Source of the DNA: Escherichia coli
GTDB taxonomy: Bacteria > Pseudomonadota > Gammaproteobacteria > Enterobacterales > Enterobacteriaceae
NCBI RefSeq assembly: GCF_003018115.1
Contig: NZ_CP027457.1
Length of the DNA stretch: 64,000 nt
Reading direction: 5' to 3' (one strand)
Shown: positions 18,956-34,689 of the stretch, one piece after another
Numbering within the stretch: the stretch's first letter is position 1
Layout of the letters: every line of letters starts with the position of its first letter
The notes under the pieces: generated by a model
Seen by the model: only the letters and a program-made list of their open reading frames with translations
Told to the model about the DNA's origin: nothing
Databases searched by the model: none
Program-made: the position numbers and the translations under genes

Positions 18956-19159
18956 AGTGAGTTGCCTTCTGAGTGGTAGTGTTGAAGCAGTGTAGCAGGT
19001 CACTTGCTGTACAGAATGTGAATTTTTTAACCCTTTGCGCCAGCCGCTGCGATGAGGTGTATGATTAGTCTGACCTCTGTCCGGTTAATGTCGCTGAGCA
19101 GGTAATCAGAGCACAACAATTACGCCAACTGCTTAGGTTGTATTGTTAAAGGTAAAGTG

Positions 19160-21019
19160 ATGAGCAAAGGAACGACCAGCCAGGATGCCCCGTTCGGGAC
19201 ATTATTGGGCTACGCCCCAGGTGGGGTAGCAATCTACTCTTCAGATTACAGTTCTCTCGATCCGCAGGAATACGAAGATGACGCCGTATTCCGTAGCTAT
19301 ATCGACGACGAATATATGGGCCACAAATGGCAATGCGTTGAATTTGCTCGCCGTTTTCTCTTTCTGAACTACGGTGTGGTCTTTACTGACGTGGGTATGG
19401 CGTGGGAGATTTTCTCGCTGCGCTTCCTGCGTGAAGTGGTTAATGACAACATCCTGCCATTGCAGGCATTTCCTAACGGCTCGCCGCGTGCGCCGGTCGC
19501 GGGTGCGCTTCTTATCTGGGATAAAGGCGGTGAATTTAAAGACACCGGCCATGTCGCCATCATTACCCAATTGCATGGCAACAAAGTCCGTATTGCGGAA
19601 CAGAACGTGATTCATTCCCCGTTGCCGCAAGGGCAACAGTGGACGCGCGAACTGGAGATGGTGGTCGAAAACGGCTGCTATACCCTTAAAGACACTTTTG
19701 ATGACACCACCATTCTGGGCTGGATGATCCAGACGGAAGATACTGAATACAGCTTACCGCAGCCGGAAATTGCAGGCGAGCTGCTGAAAATCAGCGGAGC
19801 GCGTCTGGAAAACAAAGGCCAGTTTGACGGTAAATGGCTGGATGAAAAAGATCCGCTGCAAAACGCCTATGTGCAGGCCAACGGTCAGGTGATCAATCAG
19901 GATCCGTATCATTACTACACCATTACCGAGAGCGCCGAGCAGGAGCTGATTAAAGCCACCAACGAGCTGCACCTGATGTATCTTCACGCAACCGACAAGG
20001 TGCTGAAAGATGACAACCTGCTGGCGCTGTTCGACATTCCGAAAATCCTCTGGCCACGTTTGCGTCTCTCCTGGCAGCGTCGCCGTCACCATATGATCAC
20101 CGGTCGTATGGATTTCTGCATGGATGAGCGTGGTCTGAAGGTTTACGAGTACAACGCCGACTCCGCCTCATGTCATACCGAAGCGGGCTTGATCCTCGAA
20201 CGTTGGGCGGAGCAGGGCTATAAAGGCAACGGCTTCAATCCGGCGGAAGGGCTGATTAACGAACTGGCTGGTGCCTGGAAACACAGTCGTGCACGTCCGT
20301 TTGTCCATATCATGCAGGACAAAGATATCGAGGAAAACTATCACGCGCAGTTTATGGAGCAGGCGCTGCACCAGGCGGGCTTTGAAACGCGTATCTTGCG
20401 CGGGCTGGATGAACTGGGCTGGGATGCTGCCGGGCAACTGATTGATGGGGAAGGGCGACTGGTTAACTGCGTGTGGAAAACCTGGGCGTGGGAAACCGCG
20501 TTTGATCAGATTCGTGAAGTTAGCGACCGTGAGTTTGCTGCGGTGCCGATCCGTACCGGTCATCCGCAAAATGAAGTGCGTCTTATCGACGTATTGCTGC
20601 GCCCGGAAGTGCTGGTCTTTGAGCCGCTGTGGACGGTGATCCCCGGCAACAAAGCGATTCTGCCGATCCTCTGGTCGCTGTTCCCGCACCATCGTTACCT
20701 GCTGGATACCGATTTCACTGTTAATGATGAATTGGTGAAAACAGGTTACGCAGTGAAACCGATCGCCGGTCGCTGTGGCAGTAACATCGACCTCGTCAGC
20801 CATCATGAAGAGGTGCTGGACAAAACCAGTGGTAAATTTGCCGAGCAGAAAAACATCTATCAGCAACTGTGGTGTTTGCCGAAAGTGGACGGTAAATACA
20901 TTCAGGTATGTACCTTCACCGTTGGCGGCAACTACGGTGGGACGTGTTTGCGCGGTGATGAATCACTGGTTATTAAAAAAGAGAGTGATATTGAACCGTT
21001 AATTGTGGTGAAAGAGTAA
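19160..21019 (+). CDS. gss: bifunctional glutathionylspermidine synthetase/amidase
   Basis: 619 aa from ATG at 19160 (MSKGTTSQDAPFG...); N-terminal CHAP-like amidase region and C-terminal synthetase region. Confidence 0.95.
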   Translation: MSKGTTSQDAPFGTLLGYAPGGVAIYSSDYSSLDPQEYEDDAVFRSYIDDEYMGHKWQCVEFARRFLFLNYGVVFTDVGMAWEIFSLRFLREVVNDNILPLQAFPNGSPRAPVAGALLIWDKGGEFKDTGHVAIITQLHGNKVRIAEQNVIHSPLPQGQQWTRELEMVVENGCYTLKDTFDDTTILGWMIQTEDTEYSLPQPEIAGELLKISGARLENKGQFDGKWLDEKDPLQNAYVQANGQVINQDPYHYYTITESAEQELIKATNELHLMYLHATDKVLKDDNLLALFDIPKILWPRLRLSWQRRRHHMITGRMDFCMDERGLKVYEYNADSASCHTEAGLILERWAEQGYKGNGFNPAEGLINELAGAWKHSRARPFVHIMQDKDIEENYHAQFMEQALHQAGFETRILRGLDELGWDAAGQLIDGEGRLVNCVWKTWAWETAFDQIREVSDREFAAVPIRTGHPQNEVRLIDVLLRPEVLVFEPLWTVIPGNKAILPILWSLFPHHRYLLDTDFTVNDELVKTGYAVKPIAGRCGSNIDLVSHHEEVLDKTSGKFAEQKNIYQQLWCLPKVDGKYIQVCTFTVGGNYGGTCLRGDESLVIKKESDIEPLIVVKE

Positions 21020-21035
21020 TACATGTTGTAGCAAT

Positions 21036-21068
21036 CCCGTACTGATTATGAAGAATAGTCAGTACGGG
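21036..21068 (+). terminator. candidate terminator after gss
   Basis: perfect 10-bp inverted repeat cccgtactga ... tcagtacggg with 13-nt loop; weak U-tract. Confidence 0.35.
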
Positions 21069-21310
21069 GATTAATCAAAATATTCAATATTTATATATTC
21101 AAATATTTATTCATTTCATATGTGAATACATTAACCAGCAGAATGCCTGTGTTCTAATTATTTCTAAAGATTTTTAATGAATGCTTATTGTCTGATACAC
21201 AAGAAATAACACTCTTTTTATCGTTAAAAAATGATATTTCACTTTGCCCACACCGTTAAAGTCACTGATAATGCGTCCGTTCGTAAATTCAAAATGGCGT
21301 AATCTAATAT

Positions 21311-22810
21311 ATGCTAAATTTATTTGTTGGCCTTGATATATACACAGGGCTTTTGTTATTACTTGCTCTGGCATTTGTGTTGTTCTACGAAGCAATCAAT
21401 GGTTTTCATGACACGGCGAATGCGGTGGCAACCGTTATTTATACTCGTGCCATGCAACCACAACTTGCTGTGGTGATGGCGGCATTTTTTAACTTTTTTG
21501 GCGTGTTATTGGGCGGACTTAGCGTTGCCTATGCCATTGTCCATATGTTACCAACCGATTTGTTGCTGAATATGGGGTCAACCCACGGCCTGGCGATGGT
21601 CTTTTCCATGCTGCTGGCGGCGATTATCTGGAACCTGGGAACGTGGTTCTTCGGTTTACCGGCCTCCAGTTCGCACACCTTGATTGGTGCGATTATCGGC
21701 ATCGGTTTAACCAACGCGCTGTTAACCGGCTCATCGGTGATGGATGCGTTAAACCTGCGTGAAGTGACCAAAATTTTCTCCTCGCTGATTGTTTCCCCTA
21801 TCGTCGGCCTGGTCATTGCGGGAGGCCTGATATTCCTGCTGCGACGCTACTGGAGCGGAACGAAAAAGCGTGACCGTATTCACCGCATTCCGGAAGATCG
21901 CAAAAAGAAAAAAGGCAAACGTAAGCCGCCATTCTGGACGCGTATTGCGCTGATTGTTTCCGCTGCGGGCGTGGCGTTTTCACACGGCGCTAACGACGGG
22001 CAGAAAGGGATCGGCCTGGTGATGCTGGTACTGGTGGGGATTGCCCCTGCTGGCTTCGTCGTCAATATGAACGCGTCCGGCTATGAAATTACCCGTACCC
22101 GCGATGCCGTCACCAACTTCGAACACTACCTGCAACAGCATCCTGAACTGCCGCAGAAGTTGATTACGATGGAACCTCCATTGCCTGCGGCATCTACTGA
22201 TAGCGCGCAAGTGACGGAGTTTCACTGTCATCCGGCAAATACCTTTGATGCGATTGCGCGCGTTAAAACGATGCTGCCAGGCAATATGGAAAGTTACGAG
22301 CCGTTAAGCGTAAGTCAGCGCAGCCAGCTGCGCCGCATTATGCTGTGCATCTCTGATACCTCCGCGAAGCTGGCGAAACTGCCAGACGTCAGTAAAGAAG
22401 ACCAGAACCTGCTGAAAAAACTGCGCAGCGATATGTTAAGCACCATTGAGTACGCTCCGGTGTGGATCATCATGGCGGTAGCACTGGCGCTCGGCATTGG
22501 CACCATGATTGGCTGGCGTCGTGTTGCGATGACCATCGGTGAGAAGATTGGTAAGCGCGGCATGACGTATGCGCAAGGCATGGCGGCACAAATGACGGCG
22601 GCAGTGTCTATCGGTCTTGCCAGTTATATTGGGATGCCCGTCTCTACAACACACGTACTCTCATCTGCAGTTGCAGGGACGATGGTGGTGGACGGCGGTG
22701 GGTTACAGCGTAAAACGGTAACCAGCATCCTGATGGCGTGGGTATTTACTTTACCGGCGGCGATTTTTCTTTCTGGTGGGCTGTACTGGATAGCATTGCA
22801 GTTGATTTAA
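21311..22810 (+). CDS. pitB: low-affinity inorganic phosphate transporter
   Basis: 499-aa polytopic membrane ORF with PiT-family [10 protein letters not shown] motif. Confidence 0.93.
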
Positions 22811-22819
22811 CCTTCCTGA

Positions 22820-22856
22820 AAATGCCCGGTCCTGGCGATCGGGCATTTCCATTTTT
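22820..22856. terminator. terminator between convergent pitB and yghT
   Basis: hairpin aaatgcccg-N11-cgggcattt followed by ccattttt. Confidence 0.5.
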
Positions 22857-22858
22857 GG

Positions 22859-23551
22859 CTAGTGATAACCACGCGCGGTCATAAAATCCGTAATCGCTTT
22901 TTCTGCATCAACCAACACCTGTTCCAGTGGCTGATTGGCATCGATATCAACCAGTTGTGCACCACCAAAGGTTAACTGTGGCGTTATGGCAATCTTCCTC
23001 GCCAGCGATTCCCGTTTATGGTCGGGTTTACGCGCGCAGGCCACGTCTAGATCGACATTGAGTTTGATGACCAGATCAGGCTTATGGCTCGCCATCCAGT
23101 GAAACGCTTTACGTTCCTGGCTTGCCAGCCATGAGACAAAACGACCACCTTCAACGTTAGGTGGGAACACCGTACCATCGTAAGCGCCAGGAATTTGGTC
23201 CTGAGGATAACGGTCGGTTAGAACAATTAACCCGCGACGACGACAGGCAAGCATATGACGAAAGCGCAGTAAGCGACGGGCGACAAACGCTGTAATTACC
23301 AGCGCCGGAACTGGTCCTGGCAATTTTTTTGCTGTTTTCACCTGATTTCGTTCAATTGTTTTATGTAAGGATTTTCCCATCAACGGTAATTTTGTCACTG
23401 CACGACCGACATTTCCGGCTTGTTTTCCTAAATGAACTCTTTCGGCAGCACCATATTTTTCGACAACGGTAATGAGATGTTCACACACCGTTGACTTGCC
23501 AGAACCATCGCTACCAATAACGGCAATTAATGGAGGTGTTATTGACTGCAT
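22859..23551 (-). CDS. yghT: P-loop NTPase/kinase-like protein (YghR/S/T paralog family)
   Basis: 230 aa; Walker [10 protein letters not shown]; DRYPQ motif; paralogous to the two downstream ORFs. Confidence 0.85.
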
Positions 23552-23724
23552 GAATATATCCTTAAATTTAAATATCCATCCAAAATATTTATTTGGTTAA
23601 TATGTTTTTATGAAAGCGTAATTCAGGTCAATGTCACAATTAACCATTGTCACAATAAGGTTGAACGGATATTCTGAGCACGGACCACGTAATATTCAAT
23701 ACATTATTTACTGCCGGGTTTTTC

Positions 23725-24438
23725 GTGAATCAACGTAATATGTCAATAATTAATTCCACGCCAGTGCGTGTTATTGCCATTGTAGGATGTGATGGTTCAG
23801 GTAAATCGACCCTCACGGCAAGCCTGGTAAATGAACTGGCAGCAAGAATGCCAACAGAACGCATTTATCTCGGGCAATCGTCCGGGCGAATTGGCGAATG
23901 GATTTCACAGCTCCCTGTTATTGGCGCACCTTTTGGGCGTTATCTGCGAAGTAAAGCGGCACATGTGCACGAAAAGCCCTCAACACCGCCTGGCAATATT
24001 ACTGCGCTGGTTATCTATCTGCTTTTCTGCTGGCGGGCGTACAAGTTTCGCAAAATGTTGTGTAGAAGCCAGCAAGGCCATCTGCTCATCACCGACCGCT
24101 ACCCGCAGGTTGAAGTGCCGGGTTTTCGCTTTGATGGCCCGCAATTGGCAAAAACCACGGGCGGTAACGGTTGGATAAAAATGTTAAGGCAGCGCGAGTT
24201 GAAGCTGTACCAATGGATGGCGTCTTATTTACCCGTATTGTTGATTCGTCTTGGCATTGATGAACAAACCGCGTTTGCGCGTAAACCTGACCACCAACTG
24301 GCAGCGTTACAGGAAAAAATCGCCGTTACGCCGCAATTGACATTCAATGGCGCAAAGATCCTTGAACTGGATGGTCGGCAACCAGCCGATGAAATTCTGC
24401 AAGCGTCACTACGCGCAATTCACGCCGCGCTTTCCTGA
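23725..24438 (+). CDS. yghS: P-loop NTPase/kinase-like protein (YghR/S/T paralog family)
   Basis: 237 aa from GTG start (alternative ATG at 23740); Walker A GCDGSGKST; DRYPQ; ARKPDH motif shared with paralogs. Confidence 0.85.
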   Translation: MNQRNMSIINSTPVRVIAIVGCDGSGKSTLTASLVNELAARMPTERIYLGQSSGRIGEWISQLPVIGAPFGRYLRSKAAHVHEKPSTPPGNITALVIYLLFCWRAYKFRKMLCRSQQGHLLITDRYPQVEVPGFRFDGPQLAKTTGGNGWIKMLRQRELKLYQWMASYLPVLLIRLGIDEQTAFARKPDHQLAALQEKIAVTPQLTFNGAKILELDGRQPADEILQASLRAIHAALS

Positions 24439-32597: not shown

Positions 32598-34327
32598 GCC
32601 AGGGATTCCTGCACATGAAGGCTTGCAGCATAAGCCTTCTGATAACGTTTTTTCGCTTCCGCACGGGCAGGCTTGCCGGAGGACGTTCGGGGAATGCTGT
32701 GGGGCGGCAACAGATCGATAGCCGCGGTCACGCCAAATTCGCTTTGGATCCGTGCTGCCAGCGCGTGGATAAGCTGCCCGCGACGTTCTTCATCGCTGAT
32801 CCGACACTGGATCTGCAAAATGATTTTTTCCTGGGCGGTAACAAAAGCAATCGCATCGCCAGAATGAATTTCCGGTTCCTGTTCCGCTATATATTCAATA
32901 TCCTGCGGCCAGATATTACGGCCACGAATAATAATCAGATCTTTAATGCGTCCGGTGACATACAGATAACCGTCCAGCAGATAACCGAGGTCGCCAGTGT
33001 CTAACCAGCCCGTCGCGGCAATCTCGTCTTGCGAAGCCTGGTCGCCAAAGTAACCGCTCATCAGACTGGGACCGGAGATGCAAATATGGCCTACCACACG
33101 TTCCGCGACCGGCATACCTGCTTCATTGCGGATTTCAATACCATGTTCCGGCAACGCTTTGCCGCAGTTGACGAAAGTCGATACGGCGCGTGTCTCTGCA
33201 CCCGGCGCGACGGCTTTACCCTGATATTCGAGGATGTCGCGATCCACTTCGTTAACCACAACCCCGGAGGCTTCATCAGAGAAGCTGACAGCCAGCGCAT
33301 TTTCTGCCAGTCCGTAGCACGGCATGAAAGTTTTATTGTCAAAGTTAACCTGACGGAAACATTCAGCGAATTGATGGAGTTGTTCTGCGGAGATGGGTTC
33401 TGCACCAATACCAGCGACGCGCCAGCAGGAAAGATCCAGTTCAGCGAGATCTTTTTCATTCACGCGGCGCTGGCACAATTCATAGCCAAACGGCGGCGCA
33501 ACGGAAACGGTGCCGCGATTTTTACTGATCAATTTAAGCCATTGCAGAGGACGCATGGCAAAATCCTGAGTGCGCAAATAATCTACTGAAAGTTGCGTGG
33601 CGACGGGGGTCAGGAGAAAGCCGACCAGTCCCATATCATGGTAGAAAGGCAGCCAGGAGACGCAGCGGTCGCCAGGGCGTAATTTAATGCCATCGTGGCT
33701 TATGGCGCGTAGATTAGCCATCACTTCGCGGTGAGTGATAATGACGCCACGGGGAAAACGGGTGCTGCCGGAGGTGTACTGGAGGTAGGCGATATCGTTC
33801 GGAACTGGACGCTGGAGCGCAACATCGGCTTCCGGTAATGCCTTAAACCAGGCGTGGCTTAAAACATGTAATTCGGGGTTGTTGTTATGCGTCGCGGCAT
33901 TGACCAGCGGTAACCACTCATCACCAGTGATAATGGCTGCGGGCTGGCAACTTGCCAGTAAACCCTGCAGTTTGGCGCTCCAGGAATCCCGCTGACCGAC
34001 GCCCATTGGAATCGCCAATGGTACGGCAACTAATCCAGCATACTGACAGGCAAAAAATGCCTCGACAAACCCGCTACTGGTTTCGGCAATCAGCGCCACG
34101 CGATCGCCTTTTTTCAGGTTTAGCGATAACAACCGCTTCGCACCAGCTTCGGCACGCGCTTTTAACGTCTGATATTCCAGTTGATCTTCAAGTTGGCAAC
34201 GTCTGTCATAAAAATTCATTCCAGCGCTACTCAGAGCGGCGTAGTCCAAAGCATCAACCAGCGTTGGAAAATCGGCATAGCGCATAGGTAGGGAATGCGT
34301 AAAGATTTTATTAGACATATACACCAC
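32594..34327 (-). CDS. fatty acyl-AMP ligase / acyl-ACP synthetase (adenylate-forming enzyme)
   Basis: 577 aa; AMP-binding core motif YTSGSTRFPRGV and downstream GYG/TGD adenylation motifs; first gene of a 4-gene minus-strand operon. Confidence 0.8.
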   Translation of the reverse strand: MVYMSNKIFTHSLPMRYADFPTLVDALDYAALSSAGMNFYDRRCQLEDQLEYQTLKARAEAGAKRLLSLNLKKGDRVALIAETSSGFVEAFFACQYAGLVAVPLAIPMGVGQRDSWSAKLQGLLASCQPAAIITGDEWLPLVNAATHNNNPELHVLSHAWFKALPEADVALQRPVPNDIAYLQYTSGSTRFPRGVIITHREVMANLRAISHDGIKLRPGDRCVSWLPFYHDMGLVGFLLTPVATQLSVDYLRTQDFAMRPLQWLKLISKNRGTVSVAPPFGYELCQRRVNEKDLAELDLSCWRVAGIGAEPISAEQLHQFAECFRQVNFDNKTFMPCYGLAENALAVSFSDEASGVVVNEVDRDILEYQGKAVAPGAETRAVSTFVNCGKALPEHGIEIRNEAGMPVAERVVGHICISGPSLMSGYFGDQASQDEIAATGWLDTGDLGYLLDGYLYVTGRIKDLIIIRGRNIWPQDIEYIAEQEPEIHSGDAIAFVTAQEKIILQIQCRISDEERRGQLIHALAARIQSEFGVTAAIDLLPPHSIPRTSSGKPARAEAKKRYQKAYAASLHVQESLA

Positions 34328-34689
34328 GAAAAAATTGGATATCCAAAATAAAATGACAATAATGCGGTGGATTATATAGGCATAAAAGATAAATGAGATA
34401 GTATTTTCATCAGTGTGAAAATGAACATTGATTTAAATAATGAGTTTAAGTTTTTTTGTTTTTATTGTGAATGATATTTAATTTATGAATATATTAAGAA
34501 GAAGCCTTGTCCGGTCGCCTTAAATCGACAAAAGGCATTGTGGCGCTTCTGTGTAGTCGCTGACCTTATCGTAATCATTAATAAATACTATTTATTCGTC
34601 GTTTGTATTCATTGGGTTGATTATTAAGGTGCCGTTCGTTGCTGTTGCAACCTGTTTGTCACCGTTAATTATTTGTTACCCACAGAACT
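34328..34689. promoter_or_regulatory. AT-rich divergent control region (lipid operon / yghO)
   Basis: 362-bp intergenic region of markedly low GC between divergently oriented genes. Confidence 0.45.

Follow-up and report, generated by a model that had tools for sequence, protein, structure and literature searches.

The gss-pitB spacer of Escherichia coli is a composite of a gss 3' hairpin, a poorly conserved AT-rich segment, and a proximal block paralogous to the pitA upstream region

Introduction

The closest described counterpart of the DNA upstream of pitB is the promoter and leader of its paralog pitA. For the yhiN/pitA spacer, hexamers identical to those considered here for pitB were printed in a SELEX study with RpoD holoenzyme, whose list includes pitA and not pitB; the same spacer carries an "HNS" mark in SELEX (PMC3946193). 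Control of pitA by the sRNA MgrR is also known (PMC7980370). The paralog pitB is described as without function, under normal conditions, in wild-type K-12 (PMC6469041), and pitA and pitB differ greatly in how they are expressed (PMC3649669). SELEX with RpoS holoenzyme placed a peak of intensity 12.6 at coordinate 3134436 (U00096.2), in the pitB/gsp spacer (PMC5493296).

Other described systems offer further points of comparison. Databases carry pitB as a Pho-regulon gene, which places it with Pho-box promoters, and older work, as cited in PMC6469041 and PMC3649669, described repression of pitB under Pi limitation, whereas ChIP-seq and RNA-seq found PhoB neither bound nor regulating at pitB (PMC10294691). 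AT-rich promoter-upstream regions silenced by H-NS/StpA, of the xenogeneic-silencing type, form a second class. Overproduction of TosR in strain CFT073 raised pitB by a log2 value of 4.9, alongside fimbrial operons, and TosR, which belongs to the PapB family and binds AT-rich DNA, is a predicted antagonist of H-NS and Lrp (PMC5956150). A transcriptionally silent protein-occupancy domain (tsEPOD) at the "pitB locus" silences an inserted lac promoter (PMC4191405). A third class comprises slippage-born intergenic tandem duplications (VNTR-like).

We analyzed a 64,000-nt stretch of E. coli DNA (contig NZ_CP027457.1; hereafter, the window), in which gss (19157-21019) and pitB (21311-22810; 499 aa) both lie on the + strand and are separated by a 291-nt spacer (21020-21310). 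A preliminary description of 21069-21310 had reported a very AT-rich pitB leader with reiterated motifs and a non-coding minus-strand ORF, and had proposed regulatory structure for pitB. The flagged feature proved to be ordinary: AT-rich upstream DNA, poorly conserved, with a duplication most simply ascribed to slippage. The finding in itself carries little weight, and the traits that catch the eye—AT-richness and repeats—belong to the least constrained part of the spacer.

Results and Discussion

Composition and Layout of the Spacer

The gss-pitB spacer is likewise 291 nt long in K-12, where RefSeq has no annotation between the two genes. Over 20950-21450, identity to the window is 100% in strain 504239, 99.8% in O157:H7 strains, and ~96.4% in K-12. 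The reported AT-richness is real: GC content is 26.9% over 21069-21310 against 52.2% for the window, a value equally low in only 0.18% of 242-nt windows, and the GC profile stays at 25-29% over 21050-21250 (lowest 0.2% of windows). The GC content of pitB itself is normal. Two more islands below 32% GC in 242-nt windows lie at 34235-34646 and 45293-45847.

The spacer is a three-part composite, consisting of a gss 3' hairpin, an AT-rich segment, and an 83-nt block proximal to pitB (Table 1).

Table 1. Features in and around the gss-pitB spacer (window coordinates), with identity of the window to E. albertii for the parts compared
Feature	Position	Strand	Identity to E. albertii	Basis or remark
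gss 3' RNA hairpin, 15-bp stem, GAAGA loop	21035-21069	+		RNA folding
E. coli-specific AT-rich segment, 25-29% GC, without pitA counterpart	21070-21227	no strand		GC profile, alignments
Distal AT-rich part	21073-21174		58.8%	
15/16-nt tandem duplication	21080-21110	no strand	60%	ATATTCAATATTTAT (21080-21094) then ATATTCAAATATTTAT (21095-21110)
Antisense ORF, 73 aa, TTG start	21174-21395	-		present; judged non-coding
Middle part	21175-21227		73.6%	
A6 tract, UP-element-like	21226-21231	+		~48-53 nt upstream of predicted start; near-invariant in 71 pitA orthologs, pitB, and second Pit paralogs
Proximal block	21228-21310		94%	
-35 hexamer TTGCCC	21244-21249	+		promoter scan; invariant in 9 E. coli and E. 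albertii; kept in pitA orthologs
-10 hexamer GATAAT	21267-21272	+		promoter scan; ATAAT invariant in all Pit loci examined
GC-rich discriminator GCGTCCG and predicted 5' UTR of ~32 nt	21273-21310	+		paralogous to pitA leader
Two-codon mini-ORF ATG GCG TAA	21294-21302	+		8 nt before pitB ATG; kept in E. coli and E. albertii pitB
Third codon positions of gss / pitB			68%	

The Proximal Block and the Putative pitB Promoter

The proximal part of the spacer, 21228-21310, aligns strongly with the upstream region of K-12 pitA, from ~21228 up to the ATG. Scanning one genome per species with PitB returned three locus types: E. albertii pitB, second Pit paralogs, and ~70 pitA loci. E. albertii pitB has gss upstream and the same gene order as in E. 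coli; pitA loci have yhiN upstream. Each of these Pit loci has an A-tract, then ATATTTCACTTTGCCC, 11 variable nt, and GTCACTGATAATGCG, and its leader closes with TCAAAATGGCGTAA shortly before the ATG. Across Enterobacteriaceae, pitA upstream regions contain a paralogous counterpart of the 83-nt block, which probably came along when pitB arose by copying of an older, pitA-type gene; transcription of pitB would then run from the inherited pitA-type promoter.

For the sequence upstream of 21228, local alignment to four pitA spacers gave nothing above shuffles. The duplication boundary is therefore placed at ~21228, which means that the AT-rich segment did not come from pitA. A likeness to pitA noticed by eye at ~21180-21207 was dropped.

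A promoter scan returned TTGCCC-17-GATAAT at 21244-21272, with 9/12 matches and a 17-nt gap. The scan as a whole was not above shuffles (2 found vs. 2.9 expected), so the hexamers by themselves are weak evidence; they are invariant in 9 E. coli and E. albertii, and the second Pit paralogs and 71 pitA orthologs retain them. Sigma-70 may use the promoter only weakly, as pitB does not figure among the RpoD-holoenzyme SELEX targets. Old K-12 coordinates were anchored through the reporter insertion of Bryant et al. at 3132854, the primer for which matches window 22815-22831; by this anchor, the RpoS-holoenzyme SELEX peak falls at ~21250 in the window, on the -35 hexamer. The position of the -10 hexamer puts the predicted start near 21279 and leaves a predicted leader of ~32 nt, so that most of the region previously called a leader lies upstream of the sole conserved promoter. 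As a control region for pitB, the spacer qualifies in its proximal 83 nt, which hold the putative promoter, and not in its AT-rich repeats. The A6 tract would act as an UP element.

The pitB and pitA promoter/leader regions share the A-tract, TTGCCC, the 17-nt gap, GATAAT, a GC-rich discriminator, CGTTC, and the same leader ending. They differ in the discriminator, where pitB GCGTCCG is 1 nt shorter than pitA GCGCCGCG; in the leader, which is more AT-rich in pitB (TAATCTAATAT vs. TAACGTCCT in pitA); and in the upstream neighbor, which is gss for pitB and the divergent yhiN promoter for pitA.

The second Pit paralog (L005-L008; Pseudocitrobacter spp. and Citrobacter amalonaticus) is 83-85% identical to PitB. 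It has a pitB-like leader, with a discriminator 1 nt shorter and an AT-rich leader end; its upstream genes differ from those of pitB, and its upstream DNA is likewise AT-rich. This distribution suggests a mobile "pitB lineage" and not an Escherichia-only duplication.

Conservation and Candidate Role of the AT-Rich Segment

We aligned nine E. coli alleles spanning the identity range, together with E. albertii, and ran equal-length searches across ~5,400 genomes for a population comparison. Conservation across the spacer, suggested earlier as a check on its function, is split: The proximal block is retained at 94%, whereas the distal AT-rich part, at 58.8%, falls below third codon positions. In ~5,070 E. 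coli genomes, most alleles of 21070-21174 are 90-95% identical to the window; over 21206-21310, most genomes are 95-99% identical, with a second match per genome at pitA. Diversity of the distal segment within E. coli is 5.8% against 10-12% at third codon positions, and complete neutrality is therefore not demonstrable.

Our best guess, toward which we lean slightly, is that the AT-rich segment acts by composition as a nucleoid-protein (H-NS-type) silencing platform for pitB. It would carry no sequence-specific signal; its AT-rich, TpA-rich DNA would be coated by nucleoid proteins of the H-NS/StpA type, this coating would help hold pitB expression low, and the same composition would make the spacer an IS1 target too. 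We infer the silencing role, the coating by H-NS, and the place where transcription begins; the anatomy, the paralogy, the conservation pattern, and the lack of RNA structure come from our own analysis, and polymerase binding at the promoter, the near-silence of pitB, and its de-repression come from published work. Such a platform would help explain why pitB is near-silent despite a pitA-type promoter: What distinguishes pitB from pitA is the upstream AT-rich context together with small discriminator and leader changes, and pitB has no Pho box.

The likeness to H-NS/StpA-silenced regions is one of composition and context. More than 150 nt at 25-29% GC stand in a genome of 52% GC; the adjoining gene, pitB, is poorly expressed and lineage-restricted; pitB rises when TosR, a putative anti-silencer of the PapB family, is overproduced; there is a silent domain in the neighborhood; and IS1 has been attracted. 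Unlike such regions, the AT-rich tract of the spacer is short and the GC content of pitB is normal. The TosR effect was seen in a different strain (CFT073) and may be indirect. In the accessible literature that we searched, neither H-NS occupancy nor hns-mutant expression is reported for the gss-pitB spacer.

The tsEPOD known from the pitB locus was considered as direct support for silencing of the spacer and set aside, and serves as context. Mapping of its coordinates and primers (PMC4191405) places it at ~22301-24098 in the window, over the pitB 3' end, yghT, and the yghT/yghS spacer. It thus lies ~1 kb away, on the 3' side of pitB (~22300-24100), and not over the gss-pitB spacer. The yghT/yghS spacer (23510-23766) is very AT-rich.

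The best-surviving alternative to composition-based silencing, which we regard as unlikely but deserving of weight, is that the segment is neutral filler without effect on pitB, produced when slippage and an AT bias of mutation worked on unconstrained DNA left where the pitB copy joined gss on insertion. Identity to E. albertii (59%) lies under the 68% of third positions; the repeat is missing in E. albertii and polymorphic in E. coli; and the segment has no homology to pitA upstream DNA, no known motif, no Rfam match, and no RNA structure. Against this account stand the diversity within the species, which is lower than that of third codon positions, and the strong response of pitB to an anti-silencer that binds AT-rich DNA. 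In E. coli, moreover, DNA this rich in AT seldom stays inert, since it is bound by nucleoid proteins and RNA polymerase.

Variation at the locus extends to larger events. About 5% of E. coli genomes have no full-length match to the region. IS1-bounded deletions starting in or beside the spacer occur in two genomes: In strain KFu022 (L084 3299-4012), IS1 sits at the window equivalent of 21248, inside the pitB -35 region, and in strain E70 (L085 3059-3769) at the gss stop, with pitB and its downstream neighbors deleted in each. IS1 prefers AT-rich targets. In the species representative SCPM-O-B-8794, the PitB match begins only at residue 117 although the contig continues, which suggests a disrupted pitB.

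The Tandem Duplication

Of the reiterated motifs in the preliminary description, the two quoted strings (at 21097 and 21094) each occur once and overlap one another, and hence belong to one and the same repeat copy; a genuine repeat is nevertheless present. Tandem Repeats Finder reports it over 21080-21110 with period 16, 2.0 copies, and score 55. The copies are identical at 15/15 positions apart from one 1-nt indel, a match reached by 0/300 dinucleotide shuffles, whereas the longest exact direct run (9 nt), taken alone, is unremarkable (190/2000 shuffles). The unit is composed of palindromic AATATT hexamers, with three copies at 21079, 21086, and 21102; for the spaced pair AATATT-N10-AATATT, 0 occurrences are expected in the window and 1 is observed. 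A weak 10-nt periodicity over 21152-21180 in the AT-rich segment (TTCTAATGAT x 2.9; TRF score 37) is probably low-complexity noise.

The duplication would have arisen most simply by replication slippage of a 15/16-nt unit. It resembles slippage-born, VNTR-like repeats in its two head-to-tail units, single indel, AT-rich low-complexity sequence, and lineage specificity: It is absent from E. albertii (60% identity there), and base 21101 is A in the lineage of the window only, where the remaining sampled E. coli have C or TC. Unlike such repeats, it shows no variation in copy number among the 9 aligned E. coli alleles, which carry point differences only.

The repeats had been described as part of a pitB leader. 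That placement is not supported: They occupy the least conserved part of the spacer and sit ~170-200 nt upstream of the predicted pitB start. That the tandem units form a sequence-specific operator—two adjacent AATATT-palindrome sites through which a transcription factor controls pitB from a distance—we consider improbable. The arrangement is non-random, AAATATTCAATATTT reads as a perfect 7-1-7 palindrome, and the 8-mers ATATTTAT and TATTTATT recur in 4/5 other pitB-lineage upstream regions, which 4/200 shuffles also reached. Sharing of 9- and 10-mers with one mismatch, however, is not significant (162/200 and 14/200), the site is not kept in E. albertii although gene order is identical, and ~170-200 nt separate it from the predicted start. 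A Pho box is missing, pitB showed no binding or regulation by PhoB (PMC10294691), and the literature searched yielded no transcription-factor SELEX or ChIP match on the spacer.

The gss 3' Hairpin, RNA Structure, and the Minus-Strand ORF

As + strand RNA, the gss hairpin folds at -23.5 kcal/mol (z -6.8), against only -18.0 on the - strand. Both changes specific to the lineage of the window (21035 C>T and 21058 A>G) preserve pairing only as G.U wobbles of the + strand, and a 13-bp stem with changed bases is retained in E. albertii; together, these observations point to a hairpin at the RNA level that closes the gss message. After the stem comes AUUAAUCAAAAUAUU and no U tract, so the hairpin falls outside the definition of an intrinsic terminator despite its GC-rich stem-loop; the terminator scan passes over it because the T run is missing.

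A hairpin without a U tract, hence no canonical intrinsic terminator, also fits a reading of the AT-rich segment as gss 3' UTR and Rho-dependent termination zone insulating pitB from gss read-through, and a slight excess of C over G (negative GC skew) runs through 21100-21300. We find this reading very unlikely, as the region is AT-rich and not C-rich and is not conserved with E. albertii.

The proposed regulatory RNA structure for pitB was not borne out: The AT-rich segment 21070-21215 folds no better than shuffles (z +0.62), as does the predicted leader (z +0.09), and an Rfam scan of 20500-22000 at E up to 10 returned sub-threshold noise (best 13-20 bits vs. gathering scores of 40-245). That the AT-rich region is a transcribed pitB leader folding into a riboswitch or attenuator is hardly credible, its placement upstream of pitB and some short inverted repeats being outweighed by fold energies at shuffle level (z +0.62; +0.09), Rfam matches that are all far under gathering scores, a sole conserved promoter downstream of the region, and the lack of conservation with E. 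albertii.

The minus-strand ORF was rightly called non-coding. It starts with TTG, different strains end it at different stops, the E. albertii frame is cut short by a premature stop, and its best Pfam match (E 0.091) is under the cut-off; it is annotated in occasional RefSeq records only, as a hypothetical protein. The ORF persists solely because it lies opposite the conserved promoter and coding sequence.

A Pho box consists of a pair of direct repeats of the CTGTCAT type, spaced by 11 bp and close to the -35; when CTGTCATAWAWCTGTCAY was sought across the window with <=3 mismatches allowed, none turned up, in agreement with the PhoB ChIP-seq and RNA-seq results, and pitB stands apart from Pho-box promoters in having neither the box nor PhoB binding or regulation (PMC10294691). 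By-eye matches to Fur, CRP, ArgR, RcsAB, IHF, Nac, and PhoP boxes were partial, and none is claimed.

The Pit Leader

The leader shared by pitA and pitB is near-invariant in Enterobacteriaceae. Over the 45 nt between the -10 hexamer and the ATG, 71 pitA orthologs (loci L009-L083) reach a mean majority frequency of 0.955, which falls between the values for codon positions 1 (0.933) and 2 (0.980) and well over that of position 3 (0.756). The mini-ORF is present as ATG-GCN-TAA in 70/71 pitA orthologs, its sole variable base being the Ala wobble (GCG 62, GCT 8). A Shine-Dalgarno sequence is absent before both the mini-ORF and the main ATG. The predicted pitB leader (21279-21345) has no structure beyond shuffles, and the pitA leader gives z -0.30.

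The GC-rich discriminator (window 21273-21279; in pitA at L003 1105-1112), together with the A-tract at ~-50, recalls stringently controlled rRNA-type promoters; we take the pitA discriminator to resemble rRNA promoter discriminators. In the literature searched, no paper links pitA to a uORF, and no ppGpp/DksA control of pitA or pitB is described.

A doubtful possibility, read from sequence, is that 21267-21310 represents an undescribed, deeply conserved Pit control element of pitA and pitB: an rrn-like discriminator promoter and a leader without a Shine-Dalgarno sequence, in which a translated AUG-GCN-UAA mini-ORF would gate ribosomes via termination 4-8 nt before the main AUG and would couple phosphate-carrier synthesis to growth rate or translational capacity. 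If this were so, the AT-rich tandem repeat would be irrelevant. The near-invariant leader with its mini-ORF offers a cheap and testable lead on how the level of the main enterobacterial low-affinity phosphate/metal carrier is set.

MgrR was considered as a cause of the leader conservation and rejected. Its predicted pairing with pitA (-20.1 kcal/mol; L003 1151-1172, MgrR at L092 1318-1415) lies in early codons, at +9 to +30, outside the leader, and the corresponding site in pitB (21319-21340) is degraded, with best duplexes of -12 to -14 kcal/mol; the conservation of the leader is therefore unexplained by MgrR. The pitB gene probably escapes the PhoPQ/MgrR control reported for pitA.
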